64,000 bases of DNA from Candidatus Latescibacterota bacterium (GTDB lineage Bacteria; Latescibacterota; UBA2968; GCA-2709665), in NCBI GenBank assembly GCA_965237675.1, contig OZ250150.1, positions 704,001 to 768,000 on the forward strand. The letters run 5' to 3'. Every line of letters begins with the position of its first letter. The stretch's first letter is position 1. Below, piece by piece: positions 19,725 to 53,271 of the stretch. Position numbers and translations under genes: made by a program. A model generated the notes under the pieces. That model was given only the letters and a program-made list of their open reading frames with translations, ran no database searches and was not told where the DNA came from.

Positions 19725-20342
19725 TTACGGCCAGGTGGGGCGTTCCATCGAAAAAGACTCGGTGACGCACGCGTAGTCCAGATACCCGAGACGCCCCACG
19801 GGTTTCAGGGCTACGGTGTCGACAAGGCCATCCCTGATAGCCCGATCGGCAATGTGGATGCCAACCACCTGACCGAATACAACCGTGTTCGGATCGTCCG
19901 GATCGTCCGTGGGCAGATCCACGGTCCGGGTATGGATACACTCCAGGTGGACCGGGCTTTCCGCTACACGGGGAGGTTTTACGAGTCTTGAAGGCGCCTG
20001 GGTGACACCCGCGTATTCGAACTCGTTGACGTTTCCAGGCGCGGGTACTGCGGTCGCGTTCATCTGTGTCCGAAGCTCCCAGGTGACGAGGTTTACCACG
20101 AATTCACCGGTTTCCTGCGCATTCTTTATGGAATCCTTCAACCCGCCGTGGGTGTGTGTGGTTGTAGCGGCGAACATGACCTGCGGCGGGGCATAGGCCA
20201 CCGCGTTGAAAAACGAGTACGGGGCCAGGTTGATCGAACCCCGCGCGTCTATCGATGAAATCCATCCGATCGGTCGCGGCACAACGATGGCGTTAAAGGG
20301 ATCGCGACGCAGACCGTGGCGTTCGGACGTCTTGTAAAACAT
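19725..20342 (-). CDS. Flavin reductase family protein (DIM6/NTAB-like)
   Basis: VPRPIGWISS, NLAPYSFFN, KDSIKN, EFVVN, PPRVAESPVHLEC, GRLGY. Confidence 0.92.
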   Translation of the reverse strand: MFYKTSERHGLRRDPFNAIVVPRPIGWISSIDARGSINLAPYSFFNAVAYAPPQVMFAATTTHTHGGLKDSIKNAQETGEFVVNLVTWELRTQMNATAVPAPGNVNEFEYAGVTQAPSRLVKPPRVAESPVHLECIHTRTVDLPTDDPDDPNTVVFGQVVGIHIADRAIRDGLVDTVALKPVGRLGYLDYACVTESFSMERPTWP

Positions 20343-20397
20343 ACTCGAGGCCTCCCTTTCCGAAGGTTAACCTCAATTCGAAAAAAGATAACCGTTA

Positions 20398-20543
20398 AAT
20401 TGGCCACAAAACGCACAAAAGGCACAGAAGGTATCGGTGCGAAACGGCGTGTGTCGTAACTCCGTGATCCTGCAGTTATTTCGTTGTCTCTCGGCTATAC
20501 GCCCTGCAACAGGATAGCTGTTTTTGTGCCTTTTGTGGCAATT
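20398..20543. repeat. Inverted pair of cacaaaagg-type short repeats (REP/MITE-like)
   Basis: ccacaaaacgcacaaaaggcacagaa on the left and tttttgtgccttttgtggc on the right are near reverse complements. Confidence 0.6.
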
Positions 20544-20762
20544 AGCCTTAATTCCAAAAATACAGCAAGGCGACACCACGGCAAAGACTGCAGAAACGGG
20601 GTATTGAGGTCGTCCAATTGGACGTTTTCTCCGTTCACGTCCAGTGACCTTAAACATCCTGGAACTCCCACGTCAAATCGCCTTTGTTCTTCTGTGTATA
20701 TTCGACTTAAGGTCCCCAAAAAACGACGAATCAAGGTTAAGTCGTTTTCTTTGTAGCAGGGC

Positions 20763-21764
20763 CTACTTCCACTTGAACACTACACCCAGCGCGGCGCTCG
20801 GATCGTCGGCGAGCATCGTGTAGATTTCCTGGCACTGCTCCGGTTCAGCCACGTGGGTGATGAGGTCTTCAACGAGCAATCTTCCCTCGCCCATCAGGCG
20901 CATCACCAGCCGGCGGTCCCGATCCTTTGCCCATCGGTAGTAAATGTGGTCGGCCTCCGGTGTTTTGGGCTGGTGGGCGCCCAGGATGCTGACTTCGCGC
21001 AAATGCACATCGGCCAGGAAATCCATGTCGACGGAACCGCGCGGAGAACCCAGCGCGACCACACGGCCGGCCGTGCACGCAAGACGGACAGCGGTGGGAT
21101 ATACCGCGGGTTTGCCGGTGGCTTCAATGACGACGTTGGCGCCGTCTTCCACGCAATGGCGGCCGACCGCGTCCCGGATGTCGTCCACCGCGCCGGGGTT
21201 GAAGCAAAGGTCGATGCCGCGGCTTTGCGCCTTGTCCAGACGAAAGTCGTCTAGATCGATGGCGATTACCGGCAGGGCACCGGAGAGCCGCGCGAGCGTC
21301 GCCGCGAGTTGACCGACTATCCCCAGGCCGATGACGACCACAACCTCGCCCAATTCGATGCGCGCCACCCGAATTCCGTGGATGGCAATAGCGCCCATGA
21401 CCATAAACGCGGCGGCTTTGCCCGACACGGAATCCGGGACCTTCTGGTGGAAGGACCTGTCGCCGCGGAGGACGGTATGGCTGGCGTGGTTTCCCTGTCC
21501 GGCGACGCGGTCGCCGGGCCGGACACCCTCCACTTCCTTGCCGACCTCCAGGACGGTGCCGACGTTGCAATAGCCGGTCGTGCGGGGAAAACGCACCTTG
21601 TTTCCGGGTTCGCCGCCGTGGGTCCAGCCGTGGATCTCGGTGCCGACGCTGACGGCGGTGTACTGGTTTTCGATCAGGATGCCGTTTTCCGGCAAAGGAC
21701 CGGTTTCGAACGACGCCACCTCCATGTGGCGAATGCCGGGACTGACGAGACGCCTCGCTTGCAT
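20763..21764 (-). CDS. MDR-family (zinc-binding alcohol dehydrogenase-like) oxidoreductase
   Basis: AVSVGTE, GYCNVGTV, HASH, GLGIVGQ, VIEATG; lacks the structural-Zn lobe. Confidence 0.87.
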   Translation of the reverse strand: MQARRLVSPGIRHMEVASFETGPLPENGILIENQYTAVSVGTEIHGWTHGGEPGNKVRFPRTTGYCNVGTVLEVGKEVEGVRPGDRVAGQGNHASHTVLRGDRSFHQKVPDSVSGKAAAFMVMGAIAIHGIRVARIELGEVVVVIGLGIVGQLAATLARLSGALPVIAIDLDDFRLDKAQSRGIDLCFNPGAVDDIRDAVGRHCVEDGANVVIEATGKPAVYPTAVRLACTAGRVVALGSPRGSVDMDFLADVHLREVSILGAHQPKTPEADHIYYRWAKDRDRRLVMRLMGEGRLLVEDLITHVAEPEQCQEIYTMLADDPSAALGVVFKWK

Positions 21765-21848
21765 CGGGAAGTCCTTTCGGGTTGCCTGACGGCGGATATG
21801 AGCGAGTGATCGTTTCGGACGCGAACACCCACCAGACGCCGCGTGTGG

Positions 21849-22889
21849 TTATTGCGCCTGCCTGCGGTCCAGGGTCTGTCGGAAGAGCCCGAGAAAGTTG
21901 CCACCCCAGACTTTCCGGATTTCGTCTTCGGAAAGGCCGCGAGCGAGCATGGCGCTGGTGAGGTGAACAAGCTTTGAGACGTCTCCGACAACAGGGGTAA
22001 GCGAACCCATGCCGTCGTAGTCCGAGCCGATGGCAACGTGGTCGATACCGACGAGGTCCGCCACGTAACAAATATGGTCGACCAGGCGGTCGACGGATGG
22101 GTTCCCGGGATCGATGAAACCCGGCACGAAGGCGATGCCCATCACGCCGCCGGCGCCGGCCAGGGCCTTGAGTTGATCGTCAGTGAGACAGCGCCAGTGG
22201 TTGCAGACCGAAAAGACCGCGGTATGGGTCATCGTCACCGGCAGCGAAGATCGTTCAAGAACCTCGTAGAAGGCCCTGTCATTGATGTGTGCAAGGTCCG
22301 TGATGATGCCCAGCCGGTTGCTTTCCTCAAGCACGGCTTTGCCGAATTCCGTAAGGCCGCTGGCGCTCCTGCGTTCACGCTCACGATCGTCGGGCGTGCA
22401 CGGCCCGAATGGACTCTTGCTGCCCTGAAGATAGGCCGCGTCTTCGCCGCCTTCGCCGTGGGTAATTCCGATGCAGCGCACACCCAGGCGGTAGTAGAGC
22501 CGAAGAATATCCATCTCGGCTTCCAGCCATCGTCCTGCGCCTTCGATCGTGAGCAGGATACCTATTTTATCGGATTCCCGTGCCCGTCCCACATCCGCCG
22601 ATGACAGCACCAGCATCAGGTCGGCGGGATACCGTTCCACGGAAGCCAGGGTCTGTTCAAGGGTTACACGGACGTTTGCCGTGGGACCGTTGCCGACCAC
22701 GAAAAAGCCGGCGTTGAATCCGCCTTCCCTCATTCGGGGAATGTCGATATGATACGCATGGTCCGATTTTTTCAGGTCCATCGGGCGCTCGCCGCGGTGC
22801 ACATGCTCCACGGGCGTGTCGTTGTGGCCGTCGACGATAAGGCAGCGATCGTGGACTGCCTGCGCTTCTTCAAGGGTGACGTCCGGCAT
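21849..22889 (-). CDS. Membrane dipeptidase family (peptidase M19)
   Basis: DGHNDT, LTIEG, GLTEFGK, DLAH, THT, GSDYDG, KVWGGN. Confidence 0.92.
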   Translation of the reverse strand: MPDVTLEEAQAVHDRCLIVDGHNDTPVEHVHRGERPMDLKKSDHAYHIDIPRMREGGFNAGFFVVGNGPTANVRVTLEQTLASVERYPADLMLVLSSADVGRARESDKIGILLTIEGAGRWLEAEMDILRLYYRLGVRCIGITHGEGGEDAAYLQGSKSPFGPCTPDDRERERRSASGLTEFGKAVLEESNRLGIITDLAHINDRAFYEVLERSSLPVTMTHTAVFSVCNHWRCLTDDQLKALAGAGGVMGIAFVPGFIDPGNPSVDRLVDHICYVADLVGIDHVAIGSDYDGMGSLTPVVGDVSKLVHLTSAMLARGLSEDEIRKVWGGNFLGLFRQTLDRRQAQ

Positions 22890-22958
22890 GGGAATTGTCC
22901 TCTGGTGGGGGATGAGTGTGTGCCAGTGTGGGACGGAACGATGCCCGTTCGGGCCGGG

Positions 22959-24281
22959 CTACGGCGGGTCGATGGGTACTTTCTGATTCTTGCGAACCAG
23001 CGGGTCGTACGTGAATCCGCTGGAGCGTTTCTCGAACTCGGCCCGCACTTTTTTCATGTACTCCGGGCTCCGGCAGAGGTCAACCGCGGTTCCGGCGAAA
23101 ACTTTGGCGGTCTGCTGGAGCGCTCGCCCGGCGAAAGGCAGGGCGGCCTGCGCGGCCATGTCCCGGTGATGGACAGGGGTGCCCTTCGCATAGCATACCA
23201 TCTGGAATCGACCCAGGGGCGCCAGCCAGGAGACGTTGTCTTCGTCGGTGGAGCCCCGACCCTGGGAGCCGTTGCCCTTTGTGATTTTCGTATTAAAATC
23301 CTTTTTATAACCCAGGGTTTCCGCGCGTGTTCTGTCGGCTTCCGTCGGTTCTGGCGGCCCGAAGAGTTTCAGGTTTTTTCGGACGATCTCACACATCGCC
23401 TTGTTCCGCAGACGCGGGTAAACGGCAGTGATGCGCGACCATTTCATCCGCGTGTCGGTCGCCTTCGCGGCGCCCTGGGCGCAGGCGGTGAGGCGTTCAC
23501 GCACATGGTCGACCTGTGCGCGGTTCTTGCCTCGAACGAAGTACCAGATCTTGGCATAGGCGGGCACCACGTTGGGGGCGTCGCCGCCTTGCCGGATGAC
23601 GGAATGGATCCTGACATTTTCGGGCACGTGTTCCCGGAGATAGTTCGCGGCGATGTCCGTGAGCATCACCCCGTCCAGGGCGCTCCGGCCCCGGTGCCCC
23701 CACGCGCCGTGGGCAGTGCGTCCGAAGAATTCGTAAACGACGGAGTCCAGCGATGACCCGCCGAAATCGTTGACGCCGGAAGAACTCCCCGGATGCCAGG
23801 CGAGGCACGCGTCCAGGTCCCGAAACGCGCCATCGCGGGCCATGTAGACTTTCCCCGCCAGGGTCTCCTCGGCTGGACAGCCGTAGTAGATGATTTTTCC
23901 CGATGTGCCAATTGACTTGAGAATCTTTGCAGCGGCGACCGCGCCCGCGGCCGGGGCAACGCCCAGCAGGTTGTGGCCTCAGCCGTGACCCCACTGACCT
24001 TCCTCGGGACCGCAGTTCGGCAGCGCGTCGTATTCGCCGAGCATCCCCAAAGCCGGCCCTCCGTTGCCCCGGGTTGCGCGAAAGGCGGTGGGGATATTCT
24101 TGAACGGAAATTCGACCTCGAAGCCGCGTGAGGCCAGGTAGTCCGCGATGGCTCCGGAGGATTTGACCTCCCGGAAGGGCCGTTCCGCCCATGCATGTAC
24201 CCGCATAGAAAGGTCGCTGGCGCGTTTCGACTCGTCCGCTACGGTGCGATCGATGAGGTCCTTTTTTTCTTTCGAGGTCAT
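22959..24281 (-). CDS. M20 amidohydrolase (AbgB-like) with in-frame TGA at the metal-binding Cys; candidate selenoprotein
   Basis: ORFs 23979-24314 and 22959-23843 share a frame. Read-through gives 440 aa: GEYDALP...GHG-[TGA 23981-23979]-GHNLLG...GCPAEE...GKVYM...WHP...GRTAH...GRSALD...PNVVP...GSTD. Confidence 0.85.
23949..23978 (-). promoter_or_regulatory. Putative bacterial SECIS element
   Basis: mRNA after UGA: GGCCACAACCU-GCUGGGC-GUU-GCCC(C)GGC. The stem starts 11 nt after UGA and its apical loop begins with GU. Folded by eye only. Confidence 0.5.
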
Positions 24282-24388
24282 GACATATCCCTTCTGTAAA
24301 AAACGCCGGTCCACCGTGAATAGAATTGCCGCGTTGGATCGTCAACTGTTCCGGATCGATCTTCACCCCGAGTTTTCGAACGGTACAT

Positions 24389-25477
24389 CTATGCATTAAC
24401 GATGGCATCAACGACCGCGTCGCCCACCTCCGGCGTCGCCGCGGTCCCGCCCAGGTCCGCCGGATGGTTTGCCGGATAAACAAGCGTTCGATCGACGGCG
24501 CGGTCAATTGTCTCCGAGGCGGCGGCGGCTTCCTTATCGTTATGGCGGCTGCCCAGCCAGGACAGCATCATCCCCGCGGAGAGGATCTGGGCTATGGGGT
24601 TGGCGATGCCCTTCCCGGCTATATCGGGCGCGGTACCGTGGGATGGCTGGAACACGCCGTAACGATCGCCTACGTCGGCCGAGGGCGCCATACCCATCCC
24701 GCCGATGGTGGCCGCGGCAAGGTCCGATATGATGTCCCCGAACATGTTTTCGGCAACCACAACGTCGTACCATGAGGGGTTGCGTAACTGGTACACGGTG
24801 AAGGCGTCCACGTAGGCATAATCCCGTTCGATGTCGGGATAGGATTCTGCAATCTCGTCGTAGATCTGCCTGAAAAAGGCCATGCTTTTCAGAATGTTGG
24901 CTTTGTCTACCGAGGTGACGCGGCTTTTCCCGTCAACGGGTGCCCCCTTCCGCTGCTTTGCGATTTCAAAGGCGTACCGTACAATCCGCTCGGTGCCGGC
25001 GCGGGTGATGACCATGTTGTCAACGGCGAGACTGTCGCCAAGAAGAACCCCGGCGCCTCGGGAGGCGTAAAGGCCTTCGGTATTTTCGCGGAGGATGACG
25101 TAGTCGAGCGGCGGATCCCCCGCGAGAAGCGGAGGTACGCCGCGATATTTTTTTATGGGCCGGATCCCGGCGTAGAGGTCCAGTTCGAAACGCAGTGTCA
25201 GCTGAGGTGCGATTTCGGTGCCATCGGAAAATCGGATATCCGGGTCGCCGGCGGAACCGAAAAGGACGGCATCGGCCTGCTTGCAGGCCTCGAGCGTCGG
25301 TTCGGGCAGGTCATTGCCGGTTTCGGAGTAGCACCTGGCGCCGACCGGGTGTTCGGAGAAAGCGAAACGAAGATTCGGATGCGGCTCCTCGAGAGCGAGA
25401 AGGACTTTGAGCGCTTCTGCGACCACTTCCGGGCCGACCCCGTCTCCGGGGAGAACGGCGATGTTGTAGGTTGGCAT
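24389..25477 (-). CDS. Isocitrate/isopropylmalate/tartrate-family beta-decarboxylating dehydrogenase
   Basis: LPGDGVGPEV, RENTEGLY, DKANIL, NMFGDIISD, HGTAPDIAGKGIANP; substrate not assignable. Confidence 0.9.
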   Translation of the reverse strand: MPTYNIAVLPGDGVGPEVVAEALKVLLALEEPHPNLRFAFSEHPVGARCYSETGNDLPEPTLEACKQADAVLFGSAGDPDIRFSDGTEIAPQLTLRFELDLYAGIRPIKKYRGVPPLLAGDPPLDYVILRENTEGLYASRGAGVLLGDSLAVDNMVITRAGTERIVRYAFEIAKQRKGAPVDGKSRVTSVDKANILKSMAFFRQIYDEIAESYPDIERDYAYVDAFTVYQLRNPSWYDVVVAENMFGDIISDLAAATIGGMGMAPSADVGDRYGVFQPSHGTAPDIAGKGIANPIAQILSAGMMLSWLGSRHNDKEAAAASETIDRAVDRTLVYPANHPADLGGTAATPEVGDAVVDAIVNA

Positions 25478-25533
25478 GCACGTCCTTTACAAGGGTTGTT
25501 GAGGTTTGAAAACACCGAAACGCGGGCGTATCG

Positions 25534-26697
25534 TCAGCGGCGGCGAGGGGAACGCTGGCGATCATGGATGCCGACGCGGAATCCGCCCTCGGATCCCACG
25601 CCGCGCTCGAGCATATCCGGTTCGACGTCGAATCCCGCACCGGGCGTTTCGGGTACGATCAGCCTGCCGTCTCGCATCCGCCACCCGTCCAGGACGATGC
25701 CGGGCATATCGGCGGGCGCCGCTTCCAGGAGGCTGAAGTTGGGAATGGAGGCGGCGAAGTGGGCGTGTGCGTAGCGTTCGATGATACTCCCCCAGCAATG
25801 GGGGGCGCACTTCGCGCCCCAGGGTTGGATGCGATCCGCGGTGGCTTTCCACCAGGTCAGACCCTTGAAGCGGAAGTCGTGCTGCACGATATCAATCCAT
25901 CCCTTTTCGACCATATCGAAGAAGTCGGGTGGAGGCGGCCCGGATTCACCGTCGGCCACGAGCGTGTTGCAGCCTCTCTGGACGATCGCCTCCTTAAAGG
26001 CCTGGTTGAACGCCCGATCTTCAGGAAACGGCTCTTCGAACCAATAGACCCCCACATCCCGGCAGCGTTCGAGTATGTCCAAAGCGATATTGAGCGTGGT
26101 TCCGTTGTTGGCGTCAACCAGAATTTTCGCATCCGGTCCCGCGGCTTCGCGAACCGCGTGGATCACCAGCACGTCCCTGTCCGTTCCTTCCCGAACGGGC
26201 ATCCAGCGGGCTCCGCGACCGATTTTGATTTTAAAATTGCTGTACCCATAGTCGTGCCCGGTTCGGACTTCCTCGTGGAAGATTCGGCGCGCTTTATCGT
26301 CGGAAACACCCAGATCGTCGATATAGATGGAACCGTCGTAGAGTTCCACTTCGCGGGAGCCGCGCGCGCCCAGGAGTTGGTAAAGAGGCACCCCTTCACA
26401 TCTGGCGGCCAGATCCCACAGAGGCAGATCAATGGCTGCGCCGGCCCCGTTCGACCCCAGGGGAAGTTCGAAGAGGTCCGAGGGACGTTTACCAAGCAGC
26501 GCTTCGGCGTGGCCTCGGTCGAGGGGCGACCAGCCGATACCCTCCGCGCCGCCCCCGGTGCAGATGCGCACGACCGGGTCCGTAACGGCCTGGCCATGTG
26601 CGCCGAGGCGGGCGTTAGAACCGATGGTACGCGGACGTCTTCCGCGGATGAGAACCTTTTCGATCTTGACGATGGGATCGGAGTAAATGCTGGGCAT
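25534..26697 (-). CDS. Mandelate racemase/muconate lactonizing enzyme family (enolase superfamily)
   Basis: DLPLWDL...GVPLYQLLG, KIKIG, DANNG, WFEEPF, ADGE, PHCWG, VPETPGAG. Confidence 0.88.
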   Translation of the reverse strand: MPSIYSDPIVKIEKVLIRGRRPRTIGSNARLGAHGQAVTDPVVRICTGGGAEGIGWSPLDRGHAEALLGKRPSDLFELPLGSNGAGAAIDLPLWDLAARCEGVPLYQLLGARGSREVELYDGSIYIDDLGVSDDKARRIFHEEVRTGHDYGYSNFKIKIGRGARWMPVREGTDRDVLVIHAVREAAGPDAKILVDANNGTTLNIALDILERCRDVGVYWFEEPFPEDRAFNQAFKEAIVQRGCNTLVADGESGPPPPDFFDMVEKGWIDIVQHDFRFKGLTWWKATADRIQPWGAKCAPHCWGSIIERYAHAHFAASIPNFSLLEAAPADMPGIVLDGWRMRDGRLIVPETPGAGFDVEPDMLERGVGSEGGFRVGIHDRQRSPRRR

Positions 26698-31066: not shown

Positions 31067-33142
31067 TTAAACCGAACCCAGGCTTTTCAGGATCTTCGCG
31101 ACAACGGCATCCGTATCCCGTATTCCCAATCCGGCCAGCCGCTCCAGGATCATCCCTTGCGGATCCACCAGGAAATAGGCCGGTATCCCGCGAACGTTGT
31201 AGGCGCTGGTGGCGCCGGAACCGGATGCCCCCGAGCGCACGTGCACCCCTTCGATCCCGTGTTTTTCGATGGCCTTGCGCCATGCGGCGTCGCTGGAATC
31301 CAGTGAAAGGTTGACGAAAACCACCGGCTGACCGGCCGTTTGCTTCTTTATTTTTCGCAGAAATGGCAAATCGCCGATGCAGGGACCGCACCAACTCGCC
31401 CAGAAATCCAGAAGCACCACCTTGCCCCTGAACTGGCTCAGCGACACGGGTTGTCCTTCCAGGTCCGTCAACGTGAAATCGGGCGCATGGCGCCCCGGTT
31501 GCAGCGCCATCGCCTTGTCCAGGACTGCCTGGACCGCCTCGTTGTATTCCGGATGAGGATTGGTCGCCTGGAAATCCCGCCACATGCGGTTGGTCGACGC
31601 AAAACCGTCACGTCCGTGCTGAAAACTACTGATCAGCTGTTCGGCCAGGTACCAGTAGCGCACTCTCCCGTTCAGTTTCTTCTCGGCCAGATCGAACCTG
31701 CGTGGAAGCATGGGTACTGTCCGTTTCTTTATTGCATAGATCGAATCAAGCTTTGCCTGAACCGCCTGCGGCAGGCCCAAGTCCGCGAGATCGAGCTTCC
31801 GCGACAGCCTGAGCGGCTGACGGTTTTCGTACAGCGAGTCCAGTCGGGCGCCGATCTCCGGCGATATGTCCAATCCCGTGAGATCCATCATTTCGGTCAG
31901 TTTCCGCGTCCTGCGAAAAGACCTGAACCCTTTAAACGGATCCGCCCCTTCTTCTTCGGGCAGCCGGAAAACCAGCGCACCGTCCGTCGTATCGATTGCG
32001 AGCTTTTTCAGCTTGCTTGACGTGGCAATTCTGTATGATCCATCACTCTTTTCGTAGAAGGAGTCGAGCCGCGCCTGGGCGGCTTCCGACAAGCCCATCT
32101 TCGCCAGATCGAACATCTCGGATAGCCAGGGCTTTCTCCTGTTGGCGTACATCGAGTCCAAACTGGTCCGGACAGATTGCGGCAGTCCCAACCCGGACAG
32201 ATCGATCATTTTGGATAGCTTCGGGCGCAGTCCGTCCTTTTCGTAAAGCGAGTCGAGTTGGGCCTCGGTCTCCTCCGGAAGATCCAGGCTCGTTAGATCG
32301 TAAATATCGGAAAGACCGGATGACGTGGGCATCTCCATTAATTCCCGGTCCAGCGTCCGGACAAGAAAGGTATGATAGGGATCCACGCCAATGGCCTTTT
32401 CGTCGACCATTGGAATCTGATTCAAGAAATCGTAATATTCCGGAGTAATCTTTCGGTTCTCACGGCCTGTGGCAAACCGGTAATTGGTCGGATAGGAGAT
32501 CAACAGGTATGCGTACGTGTAGTTAAAGTAGCGCGACGCATACTCCACAAATCCTGGAGACAGCGCATAAACCGTGCGCCGCCTGTCCAGGTATTCGAGT
32601 TGGTCCGCGCGCCACCCGTCCACCATGCGAGTAAAAACATCCGCCTCCATTTCCCGGGAGTCCCTGATTTTCCGCTGGAAATCCTGGAATCGGGGGTACC
32701 ATTCGGCAATGAAGCGGTTGTTGTCCGCGTTTTGGCCGCTGAACCGGAACGAAGTGTAGAAAGAACCGGGATGGATGGAAATATGTAGGCTGTCCCCGGG
32801 TTCGACGAAGAAAACCAGTGGACTGGGTTTCAGGAGGAACGCCACGGCCTGCCGCACCGGCTTCCATGTGATTCCCCCGCTCTTGTAGCTGCCCCGGACG
32901 AGGGTCCCCCGGACGAGGGGAATCTCGAGGGCGAAGCGGTTCCGGTTGTCCAGAACCACGCGCTGCCCGGCCTGTTTCCCCAGCGCCGCGGGCGAGTCGT
33001 AACTGAACGTGATTTCCCGCGAGGTCGGCTCCCGGACTTCACCGGTGATAATCGCGACAGATCGTTCGCTGCTTTCCGCGGCAAAGCCGCCAGTCGCCAT
33101 AACGAGTAGGGCGATCAGAATGAGTATACCTGGATTCTTCAT
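31067..33142 (-). CDS. Secreted TlpA/ResA-family thiol-disulfide oxidoreductase with long N-terminal region and internal repeats
   Basis: Signal peptide MKNPGILILIALLVMATGGFA; C-terminal APDFTL, DFWASWCGPC, GIPAYFLVD. Confidence 0.9.
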   Translation of the reverse strand: MKNPGILILIALLVMATGGFAAESSERSVAIITGEVREPTSREITFSYDSPAALGKQAGQRVVLDNRNRFALEIPLVRGTLVRGSYKSGGITWKPVRQAVAFLLKPSPLVFFVEPGDSLHISIHPGSFYTSFRFSGQNADNNRFIAEWYPRFQDFQRKIRDSREMEADVFTRMVDGWRADQLEYLDRRRTVYALSPGFVEYASRYFNYTYAYLLISYPTNYRFATGRENRKITPEYYDFLNQIPMVDEKAIGVDPYHTFLVRTLDRELMEMPTSSGLSDIYDLTSLDLPEETEAQLDSLYEKDGLRPKLSKMIDLSGLGLPQSVRTSLDSMYANRRKPWLSEMFDLAKMGLSEAAQARLDSFYEKSDGSYRIATSSKLKKLAIDTTDGALVFRLPEEEGADPFKGFRSFRRTRKLTEMMDLTGLDISPEIGARLDSLYENRQPLRLSRKLDLADLGLPQAVQAKLDSIYAIKKRTVPMLPRRFDLAEKKLNGRVRYWYLAEQLISSFQHGRDGFASTNRMWRDFQATNPHPEYNEAVQAVLDKAMALQPGRHAPDFTLTDLEGQPVSLSQFRGKVVLLDFWASWCGPCIGDLPFLRKIKKQTAGQPVVFVNLSLDSSDAAWRKAIEKHGIEGVHVRSGASGSGATSAYNVRGIPAYFLVDPQGMILERLAGLGIRDTDAVVAKILKSLGSV

Positions 33143-33197
33143 AAAACGATCCTTCTGAGCGGGTTTCGGGTTATTGCACGCCAAAGTACAAGATTAA

Positions 33198-51915: not shown

Positions 51916-53271
51916 TCAGCCCGGGTCCGAAAACCGTCCTTCCATCTCCTTGCGGAGGCGGAAAACGTCGCTGTCTTCGTCGAGTTCCACGTCGGATCGA
52001 AGGATCGGCTGGCCCGCTGTAATTCTGCGTTTCAGCCTGAGTGTGTGCGCCAGGCCGATGGGCAGGACCCCGCGTTTGAACGCGCCGGCCGCTGGCATAA
52101 GTTTGCCGTAAACTCTATATCCGCCCTCGCCGTCCAGGATTTCTCCCTCGTCAAGATCGCGTTTCGCGGTGGCAGCGACGTCTGCGACAAACGCACGGGG
52201 GGAGCCGGTCGCTTCGCCGTGCACACCGGCCCGCATCACGCTGGTGGCAAGTTCCATGCCGACCAGATGGTAGGGACGGTAGATGGCCGTATAACGTCCG
52301 GAGGCATCCGTCGGCAGGCCGTATTCGGCGAAACAGCGAGGTATATAGTCGCCCGCCCCTTCGATGGTGACGTACACACCCCAGCGCAGGTGCTGGTCGA
52401 CCGGCGTTCCGTCCGGTTGCACGCAGGAAACGACCTCGACCGTTCCCTTGTGCGAGAGTTGACCGCCCGCGCTCCGGGGCCGGCAGACCTCGGGCAGGCG
52501 GTCGATTTCGCATGGCGGGAAGTTCAGACCCTCCGGCTGCGGTTCCAGCCCCGTGGCATTTGAGACAGCGGCCATTTCAATGGCCGATTTCGTTCCGTCC
52601 AGGAAGGAATTGAACATCCTCGGGTTCATCCCGCCGCGAGCCGCGGTTTCCGCGTCAATCCCGTAGTGGTCCCAGACGGTATCGGGCGTCGATGCATGGT
52701 AGGCGGGCCGATGTTTCGTGCCTTTACCGGCGCAGACGACGTTGAATCCGTTGGTCCTCGCCCATTCGACGAGTTCACAAATCAAAGCCGGCTGGTCGCC
52801 ATAGGCAAGCGAGTAGACGAGGCCGGCGGATTCCGCCCGTTGCGCCAGTACGGGTCCCGCGAGGACGTCCGCTTCGACGTTGACCATGACCAGGTGGCGG
52901 CCTTCGTCGATGGCTTTAAGGGCGTAGTGGATGCCCGCGAGTGGATTGCCGGTGGCTTCGACAACCACGTCCAGGCCGGCCGCGCAAACCAGAGCATCGC
53001 CGTCGTCGGTGAGGTGGGTGGCCCCGGTCTTAAGGGCATTGTCGAAGTCCGTTGCGGCGAATTGGCCGGGCGGCCACTCCGCGCGCCCGAGGGCTTCGCG
53101 CGCCCGGTCAATGGAGATATCGGCCACACCCAAGACATGCAGATCCGGAATGCGGCGGGCCTGGGCCAGGAACATGGTGCCGAATTTTCCGGCGCCGATG
53201 AGACCCACACGGACGGGATTGTCAGGGTCGGCGTGCGCCGGTCTCCTTCGAGGGCTACGAACGTTATCCAT
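51916..53271 (-). CDS. Homoserine dehydrogenase-like NAD(P)-binding oxidoreductase with C-terminal SAF domain
   Basis: VGLIGAGKFG, VEATG, MVNVEAD, GDQPA, SFLDGTKSAIEM, RPYHL, LDGEGG. Confidence 0.88.
   Translation of the reverse strand: MDNVRSPRRRPAHADPDNPVRVGLIGAGKFGTMFLAQARRIPDLHVLGVADISIDRAREALGRAEWPPGQFAATDFDNALKTGATHLTDDGDALVCAAGLDVVVEATGNPLAGIHYALKAIDEGRHLVMVNVEADVLAGPVLAQRAESAGLVYSLAYGDQPALICELVEWARTNGFNVVCAGKGTKHRPAYHASTPDTVWDHYGIDAETAARGGMNPRMFNSFLDGTKSAIEMAAVSNATGLEPQPEGLNFPPCEIDRLPEVCRPRSAGGQLSHKGTVEVVSCVQPDGTPVDQHLRWGVYVTIEGAGDYIPRCFAEYGLPTDASGRYTAIYRPYHLVGMELATSVMRAGVHGEATGSPRAFVADVAATAKRDLDEGEILDGEGGYRVYGKLMPAAGAFKRGVLPIGLAHTLRLKRRITAGQPILRSDVELDEDSDVFRLRKEMEGRFSDPG

Follow-up and report, generated by a model that had tools for sequence, protein, structure and literature searches.

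What does a metallohydrolase gene encode when the codon for its metal-site cysteine reads as a stop? The question is raised by a locus on the minus strand of a 64,000-nucleotide stretch of the genome of a Candidatus Latescibacterota bacterium (GenBank assembly GCA_965237675.1, contig OZ250150.1, positions 704,001 to 768,000; the whole stretch is hereafter 'the window'). Here, the reading frame of an amidohydrolase of the M20D subfamily contains one internal TGA, and a first-pass annotation had proposed that the gene encodes a selenoprotein hidden as two split open reading frames (ORFs), with selenocysteine (Sec) as a ligand of a dinuclear metal centre. Comparison with related genomes indicates that the UGA at codon 101 is very probably read as Sec. 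Two features define the locus:

22959..24281, minus strand: complete coding sequence of the putative Sec-containing M20D enzyme, with its ATG at 24281 and 440 codons before the TAG stop
23979..23981, minus strand: in-frame TGA, codon 101, very probably read as selenocysteine, aligned with the Cys of the motif G-H-[AG]-C-G-H

On the minus strand, the context of the TGA is GGT CAC GGC TGA GGC CAC AAC CTG CTG GGC (GHG-TGA-GHNLLG). Translation of 24281..22959 with TGA read as U gave 440 residues, in which U101 was the sole non-standard step before the TAG, and one frame ran throughout, with 100 codons 5′ of the TGA and 339 codons 3′ of it. The interrupted motif and intact flanks described at first pass were therefore confirmed, and every family motif named there was recovered from the read-through protein: EYDAL at residues 83–87, PAEE at 136–139, WHP at 162–164, GRSALD at 198–203 and STD at 344–346. 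A purine-rich GAAGGGA lies a few bases 5′ of the ATG.

Under genetic code table 11, the gene breaks in two: 100 N-terminal codons, which appear in the ORF list within a 111-residue ORF (23979..24314) that starts at an upstream GTG, and a 294-residue ORF (22959..23843) that starts at an internal ATG. The first ATG 3′ of the TGA is codon 147, beyond both H103 and PAEE. It had been expected that standard annotation would miscall such a gene, and public records bear this out: a short-protein search with residues 1–100 returned 63 clusters, mostly from Latescibacteria and mostly named 'hypothetical protein', 54 of them exactly 100 residues long, while the C-terminal parts appear as peptidase fragments of 294–336 residues, in one case under the name 'peptidase dimerization domain-containing protein'.

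We looked for the same TGA in related genomes. In a six-frame search, 37 of 41 relatives held an ortholog of 67–100% identity, and all 37 orthologs had a single internal TGA; the remaining four relatives held paralogs of ~30% identity only and no ortholog. Extending the scan to 168 Latescibacterota genomes identified 55 species-level genomes, from at least three families, with an ortholog of at least 67% identity and one TGA each, so the TGA is not unique to this assembly, a possibility that the first-pass annotation had raised. After deduplication, all 41 distinct Sec-type sequences (67–100% identity) carried TGA at this column only, and no second stop or frameshift was found in any ortholog examined. 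Contigs from independent studies also carry close copies of the gene. Among them are X10 and X11, from RNA libraries of one study (an origin that does not show transcription), in which a ~88% identical ortholog lies on a single 1.3-kb contig that covers window positions 23068–24388 and both halves of the gene. Because no ortholog with 67% identity or more lacks the single TGA, its origin by chance is excluded.

Both sides of the TGA were found to be under purifying selection, as a selenoprotein gene would require. In nine Nei–Gojobori comparisons, the ratio of nonsynonymous to synonymous divergence (dN/dS) was 0.11–0.26 over the 100 codons that precede the TGA and 0.07–0.15 over the 339 that follow it, with dS ranging from 0.4 up to saturation. 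Both halves are therefore evidently maintained as protein, and a TGA that has persisted over near-saturated synonymous divergence is therefore no recent lesion. Together, these results identify 24281..22959, as far as sequence comparison can, as one intact functional gene, predicted to encode a 440-residue M20D amidohydrolase, dipeptidase or aminoacylase.

Outside the TGA-containing group, the same column encodes cysteine. When the column was checked on extracted loci, TGA was present in 36/36 Sec-type loci and TGC or TGT in 8/8 others, these being a 65% identical ortholog in genome G154 and seven more distant homologs. The orthologs thus keep TGA and the more distant homologs have TGC or TGT, the pattern in which the first-pass annotation had seen support for Sec. 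Within the 168 genomes, neither the G154 ortholog nor the 33–43% identity homologs of 25 more genomes had a TGA. A scan of one genome per species (185,579 species) returned 80 loci: 25 with TGA, 53 with Cys and two whose motif was unmatched by the search pattern. All 25 TGA loci were at least 69% identical to the query and came from records titled Latescibacterota or, in some cases, Gemmatimonadota or 'bacterium'; the Cys forms came from Kiritimatiellae, Planctomycetota, Lentisphaerae, Armatimonadota, Aminicenantes, Firmicutes-type metagenome-assembled genomes and Alphaproteobacteria. When metagenomes were scanned with a Cys form as seed, 59 loci were returned, 57 with TGC/TGT and two with TGA. 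Protein databases hold full-length relatives of 440–441 residues that read GHGCGH, with up to 76% identity, and matching DNA with TGC (L152–L154) was recovered for one of these Cys forms (P0011) and for some others.

In a quick maximum-likelihood tree of 89 rows, 41 Sec forms and 13 Cys forms fell in one clade, on which the Sec/Cys label needs five changes, at least three of them forced by well-supported branches; as the tree came from a short search with Shimodaira–Hasegawa-like approximate likelihood ratio support only and a midpoint root, no direction of Sec/Cys change was inferred. Such interleaving of the two forms fits exchangeability at one functional site. The Sec form itself seems, as far as sampled, to be confined to one Latescibacterota clade. 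Separately, six records titled Gemmatimonadota or Gemmatimonadetes (loci L079, L080, L085, L086, L089 and L091) carry Sec-form orthologs that are 69–87% identical; these group with Latescibacterota genomes on the tree, and record label and genome taxonomy are probably in conflict.

If the UGA is decoded as Sec, the organism should possess the machinery for it, and the search suggested at first pass found selA, selB, selD and tRNA-Sec all present in the genome. The tRNA-Sec scored 73.3 bits against Rfam and was called SeC(tca) by ARAGORN; selB (358 bits), selA (561 bits) and selD (363 bits) were all above curated cut-offs. The genes for tRNA-Sec (selC), SelB and SelA adjoin on the minus strand (G000:C1:4984023-4987542; loci L001, L009 and L016), and the genome's selD (G000:C1:309559-310482; locus L022) is itself of the Sec type, with an in-frame TGA in CG-U-AAK. 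In selD, manual reading suggests a possible 5-bp stem, AGUCC/GGACU, with a GGUC loop 21–24 nt after its UGA; the minimum free energy structure from RNAfold differs.

selA was found in 131 of the 168 Latescibacterota genomes, so Sec use is widespread in this mostly uncultured phylum. Of the 55 TGA-form genomes, 54 have selA, and the remaining one (G032) is a 430-contig assembly rated 91% complete. selA was not found in G154, the only genome whose close ortholog is a Cys form, or in the congener G155, assemblies that are rated 86% and 90% complete. TGA closes 556 of the 1,114 stop-to-stop frames of at least 500 codons in the genome and is its commonest ordinary stop. It has therefore not been reassigned, and any decoding at codon 101 must be site-specific.

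In bacteria, site-specific decoding of this kind would call for a Sec insertion sequence (SECIS) downstream of the UGA, and the region concerned is:

23936..23964, minus strand: candidate SECIS region, nt 18–46 counted from the U of the UGA

Across 41 Sec forms, synonymous-codon diversity in the 10-codon windows that start 5–6 codons after the TGA was 0.27 bits, against a gene-wide mean of 1.21 bits. These windows rank 1–2 of 358 (lowest first), and all 12 of the lowest-diversity windows of the gene overlap the post-TGA stretch. In a control set of 27 Cys forms (53–72% identity, mean 1.18 bits), the same stretch ranked 311–323 of 323 and was among the most variable, and Cys forms that encode the identical peptide G-V-A-P-A-V-G-A-V use other codons there. 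Low diversity in the Sec forms and high diversity in the Cys forms indicate a constraint at the RNA level that goes with the TGA.

RNAalifold predicted a consensus 7-bp hairpin (nt 29–35 paired with 40–46) with a 4-nt loop (nt 36–39; window positions 23946..23943), and a smaller 4-bp hairpin (18–21 with 25–28) on its 5′ side. Across 36 distinct sequences, 396 of 396 cells form standard pairs, and pair 30/45 is G-C in 28 sequences, G-U in seven and A-U in one. The G-rich loop sits 33 nt after the UGA, coincident with the strongest synonymous constraint of the gene. The pair that closes the loop is C-G in 16 of the 36 sequences, this genome among them, and U-G in 20. The distance from UGA to loop varies among bacterial SECIS elements, over a range that would include the loops of both this gene and selD. 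The conserved hairpin, ~15–45 nt downstream of the UGA and within the coding sequence, would most likely direct recoding as a bacterial SECIS.

We then considered what protein would result. The translation scored 181.9 bits with the NCBIfam model TIGR01891 ('amidohydrolase'), above its cut-off of 153.75, and PF01546 is precomputed for many close homologs. Among solved structures, phmmer identified HmrA of Staphylococcus aureus (3RAM, 1e-38) and human PM20D2, an Xaa-Arg dipeptidase (7YH4, 2e-29); in both alignments U101 is opposite the Cys of GHACGHN. An AlphaFold model built on a 33-sequence alignment (A1) had a mean predicted local distance difference test score (pLDDT) of 90.8 and a predicted template modelling score (pTM) of 0.91. 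HmrA (3RAM) was also its top Foldseek match (E 7e-34, TM 0.80/0.90), and the other top matches were M20D structures (7YH4/8ZEI/8XZC/8ZEL, 6SLF, 4EWT, 1YSJ, 1XMB and 3IO1), with 16–26% identity to any solved member. The two-domain fold, catalytic plus dimerisation, is present in the model.

The enzyme had been described as AbgB-like at first pass. Its placement among M20D amidohydrolases stands, on the TIGR01891 match, but the AbgB part does not: the nearest solved structures are HmrA and PM20D2, with the AbgB-type 3IO1 distant (E 3e-6); no AbgB-specific NCBIfam model matched the query; and the AbgB context of a second M20 subunit and a transporter was absent among the 10 neighbouring ORFs scanned. 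The AbgB name on relatives is an automatic label.

We take the M20D metal-ligand set to be Cys-x-His, Glu-Glu, His and His, and the Cys of H-x-C-G-H to be the bridging Cys of the M20D enzyme CsAga. The corresponding positions in the gene are:

23973..23975, minus strand: His103 of U-G-H, predicted second metal ligand, invariant in A1
23865..23870, minus strand: Glu138-Glu139 of PAEE, predicted general base and metal ligand, both invariant in A1
23793..23795, minus strand: His163 of WHP, predicted metal ligand, invariant in A1
23166..23171, minus strand: His371-His372, one of them the predicted C-terminal metal ligand, H371 invariant and H372 at least 90% conserved in A1

Neither the Sec nor the Cys forms vary at H103, E138, E139, H163 or H371, and position 101, UGA here, is Cys in all Cys forms. 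The M20D metal-ligand set would be complete in this protein only if Sec serves as a ligand. A Cys that bridges two zinc ions is described for CsAga in a review (PMC11511702).

The explanation that we favour, with a probability of about 0.82 for the whole, is therefore a functional gene, SECIS-directed insertion of Sec and a metal-bridging hydrolase. The UGA of codon 101 would be recoded to Sec by the organism's own SelA/SelB/SelC/SelD system, and Sec would take the place of the G-H-x-C-G-H cysteine, which in M20D enzymes is described as a bridge between the two catalytic metal ions. That Sec is the metal-bridging ligand of a hydrolase we consider likely. This would give an active site whose binuclear centre (Zn, Mn or Co), bridged by a selenolate, activates water and hydrolyses an amide bond, and the role of selenium would be non-redox. 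Sec would most likely be kept because, as a softer ligand that is fully deprotonated, it tunes the affinity for metal, or because it resists irreversible oxidation. We infer Sec insertion, metal ligation, the hydrolytic reaction and the reason for Sec retention alike. The recoding mechanism would be ordinary; the unusual part is the position of selenium, in the ligand that presumably bridges the two metals of a hydrolytic centre.

The genes around the locus bear on the possible substrate. The two immediate neighbours are:

21849..22889, minus strand: M19 membrane-type dipeptidase, downstream neighbour (Pfam PF01244, E 4.5e-81)
24389..25477, minus strand: isocitrate/isopropylmalate-dehydrogenase family enzyme, upstream neighbour (Pfam PF00180, E 7e-92)

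They belong to a same-strand series (19725-26697, minus) that runs, in gene order, from an MR_MLE_C enolase-superfamily gene through the isocitrate/isopropylmalate-dehydrogenase gene (Iso_dh), the Sec gene and the M19 gene to a zinc alcohol dehydrogenase (Zn-ADH)-type oxidoreductase and a flavin reductase. In 18 of 18 loci of family f1 (L026–L043), M19 is adjacent, Iso_dh lies upstream and the ADH gene downstream; in family f2 loci, the ADH gene is usually adjacent, Iso_dh is sometimes upstream and M19 is not adjacent. None of the four tested neighbours was shared by the f4 Sec loci or the Cys forms, bar weak MR_MLE- or ADH-like matches of 25–28% identity at three loci (L065, L056 and L097). 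These same-strand genes may form a small cluster for the catabolism of peptides or N-acyl amino acids. Human PM20D2 (7YH4/8ZEI) is a beta-alanyl-lysine dipeptidase, and the partly conserved neighbours (M19 dipeptidase and enolase-superfamily enzyme), with the dipeptidases HmrA and PM20D2, point weakly, by analogy, to a dipeptide or N-acyl amino acid substrate.

Elsewhere in the window, a 705-residue ORF (31067-33184, minus strand) carries a Redoxin/AhpC-TSA/thioredoxin-like domain on its C-terminal side, whereas its long N-terminal portion has no Pfam match. A scan of the window for more TGA candidates with Cys nearby gave noisy output and nothing convincing. Near position 51918 (minus strand), a 1112-codon stop-to-stop frame contains a single TGA, in U-R-F-C, flanked by 474 and 637 codons; it may simply be two adjacent genes that share a frame.

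Several observations weigh against the explanation that we favour. Its basis is entirely in silico. The predicted metal-ligand role of residue 101 comes from homology and one review sentence on another M20D enzyme, and the only Pfam family reported on the query itself was M20_dimer (PF07687). As conserved gene context is limited to family f1, it points to a substrate only weakly.

As to the RNA element, the loop is GGGC in this genome, compared with RGGU in 35 of 36 aligned orthologs. Covariation in the hairpin was not significant, as 105 of 500 shuffles reached its score and almost nothing in the hairpin varies. Folded singly, the 72 nt that follow the UGA were no more stable than shuffled sequences (z 0.39); such folds are uninformative in G+C-rich coding sequence, and comparative analysis was used instead. 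The hairpin is also partly imposed by the conserved peptide, since five of its seven pairs are still possible in the Cys form L152, and the Cys forms used as control show greater divergence than the Sec forms with which they were compared. A rival long hairpin (19–29 with 36–48) pairs in 93.9% of cells, but 20 of the 36 sequences cannot form its C29-G36 pair, and we rank it second to the 29–35/40–46 hairpin.

Could the protein be made without selenium, or not be made at all? A single-base nonsense mutation or an assembly error, with the TGA terminating translation and the remains of the gene decaying, would account for the frame that table 11 splits and for the public calls of a 100-residue protein plus C-terminal fragments. 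Decay of this kind is scarcely credible for a TGA shared by 55 species-level genomes of at least three families and by 41/41 distinct sequences, with dN/dS of 0.07–0.26 over both sides, synonymous sites near saturation, no extra stop or frameshift in the examined orthologs and close copies on contigs of independent studies; ortholog identities of 67–100% likewise exclude copies of one contaminated assembly. It is also very improbable, although less so, that the UGA is bypassed without selenium, either by a near-cognate or suppressor tRNA that inserts Trp, Cys or Gly or through halves that are made separately and then assemble. In favour of a bypass, Cys forms are clearly functional in relatives and interleave with the Sec forms on the quick tree. 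But a suppressor would have to act site-specifically, since TGA is the commonest ordinary stop; the genome has a complete Sec system; selA accompanies the TGA form in 54 of 55 genomes and was not detected in the genome with the close Cys form (G154); and the RNA-level constraint occupies the place expected of a bacterial SECIS. Were the C-terminal half made on its own, its earliest ATG would be codon 147, yet codons 102–146 are within the stretch under purifying selection.

A different kind of alternative accepts Sec but gives it another task, as a redox-active or regulatory residue, as a ligand of a different soft metal or in new, non-hydrolytic chemistry. Most selenoproteins probably serve redox functions, according to a 2026 review (PMC13188914), and oxidoreductase genes lie nearby (Zn-ADH, flavin reductase and GFO/IDH/MocA). 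We nevertheless consider such a role unlikely, because the site residues expected of M20D (H103, E138/E139, H163 and H371/H372) are invariant or nearly so in Sec and Cys forms. The two forms are, moreover, up to 76% identical, share the same surrounding peptide and have been swapped repeatedly on the quick tree, and forms that swap in this way argue for the same job being done by either residue.

Would such an enzyme be new? The 2026 review presents itself as the 'most comprehensive inventory', with 119 prokaryotic selenoprotein families or subfamilies (PMC13188914). Its Table 1, which covers the 119 families, has no M20, amidohydrolase, TIGR01891, PF01546 or PF07687 entry, in keeping with the first-pass view that the protein lies outside the classical selenoprotein families. 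The main texts of PMC13188914, PMC12013277, PMC13326102, 10.1101/2022.07.06.499078, PMC2398784, PMC9312934 and PMC5029168 likewise contained no mention of M20 or amidohydrolase. No published Sec-containing M20 enzyme was found in our literature search, although supplementary candidate lists (deep-Sep, BSepDB and GOS) may hold one. That Sec bridges the metals of a hydrolase and that this is also unreported is, in our estimate, slightly better than an even bet. The chances are about equal for and against the fullest version of the account, in which this would be the first natural metallohydrolase with a selenolate-bridged binuclear site, in which encoded selenium takes part in Lewis-acid rather than redox chemistry, arisen in Latescibacterota, swapped back to Cys several times (including in a genus in which selA was not detected) and retaining Sec to tune metal affinity or selectivity or to shield the bridging ligand from irreversible oxidation.

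In the selenoenzymes described so far, Sec carries out redox chemistry or coordinates redox-active Mo, W or Ni. If our reading is correct, Sec bridging two hydrolase metals would add to the chemical roles that selenium is known to have in living systems, and the natural pair of Sec and Cys forms, up to 76% identical, would allow the benefit of selenium to be asked about directly, be it metal selectivity, pKa or oxidation resistance. A dedicated model would also correct the annotation of this gene across Latescibacterota, a largely uncultured phylum.

How, then, does the predicted enzyme compare with known systems? Its closest counterparts are in the M20D subfamily (HmrA 3RAM, PM20D2 7YH4/8ZEI, CsAga 6SLF, 4EWT, YxeP 1YSJ, ILL2 1XMB and the AbgB-type 3IO1), which have the same two-domain fold. 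The motifs G-H-x-[C/U]-G-H, PAEE, WHP and HH are common to these enzymes and the gene product, and metal-activated hydrolysis of an amide bond is presumably shared; the difference is that the zinc-bridging Cys that the review describes in CsAga corresponds to UGA, and so very probably to Sec, here. The subfamily contains no characterised ortholog of the Sec protein. Hydrolase-type parents are also known among predicted selenoproteins, namely the UshA-like families NF041198 and NF049981 and the CTP-synthase C-terminal-related glutamine amidotransferase NF004836 (Table 1, PMC13188914). Like the protein described here, these were computationally predicted in bacteria, but their folds are unrelated, none is M20, and their Sec is a presumed nucleophile or has no assigned role.

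The closest parallel for selenium as a metal ligand is found in the formate dehydrogenase FdhA and the [NiFeSe] hydrogenases, in which Sec is coordinated to Mo/W and to Ni, respectively (PMC13188914). In these enzymes, as proposed here, Sec replaces the metal-ligand Cys of homologs, and it is inserted at UGA by way of SelB and an in-frame SECIS, the same scheme that we propose for codon 101. They are, however, redox enzymes with redox-active metals, whereas the scaffold here would be that of a Lewis-acid binuclear hydrolase, in which no redox step is expected.

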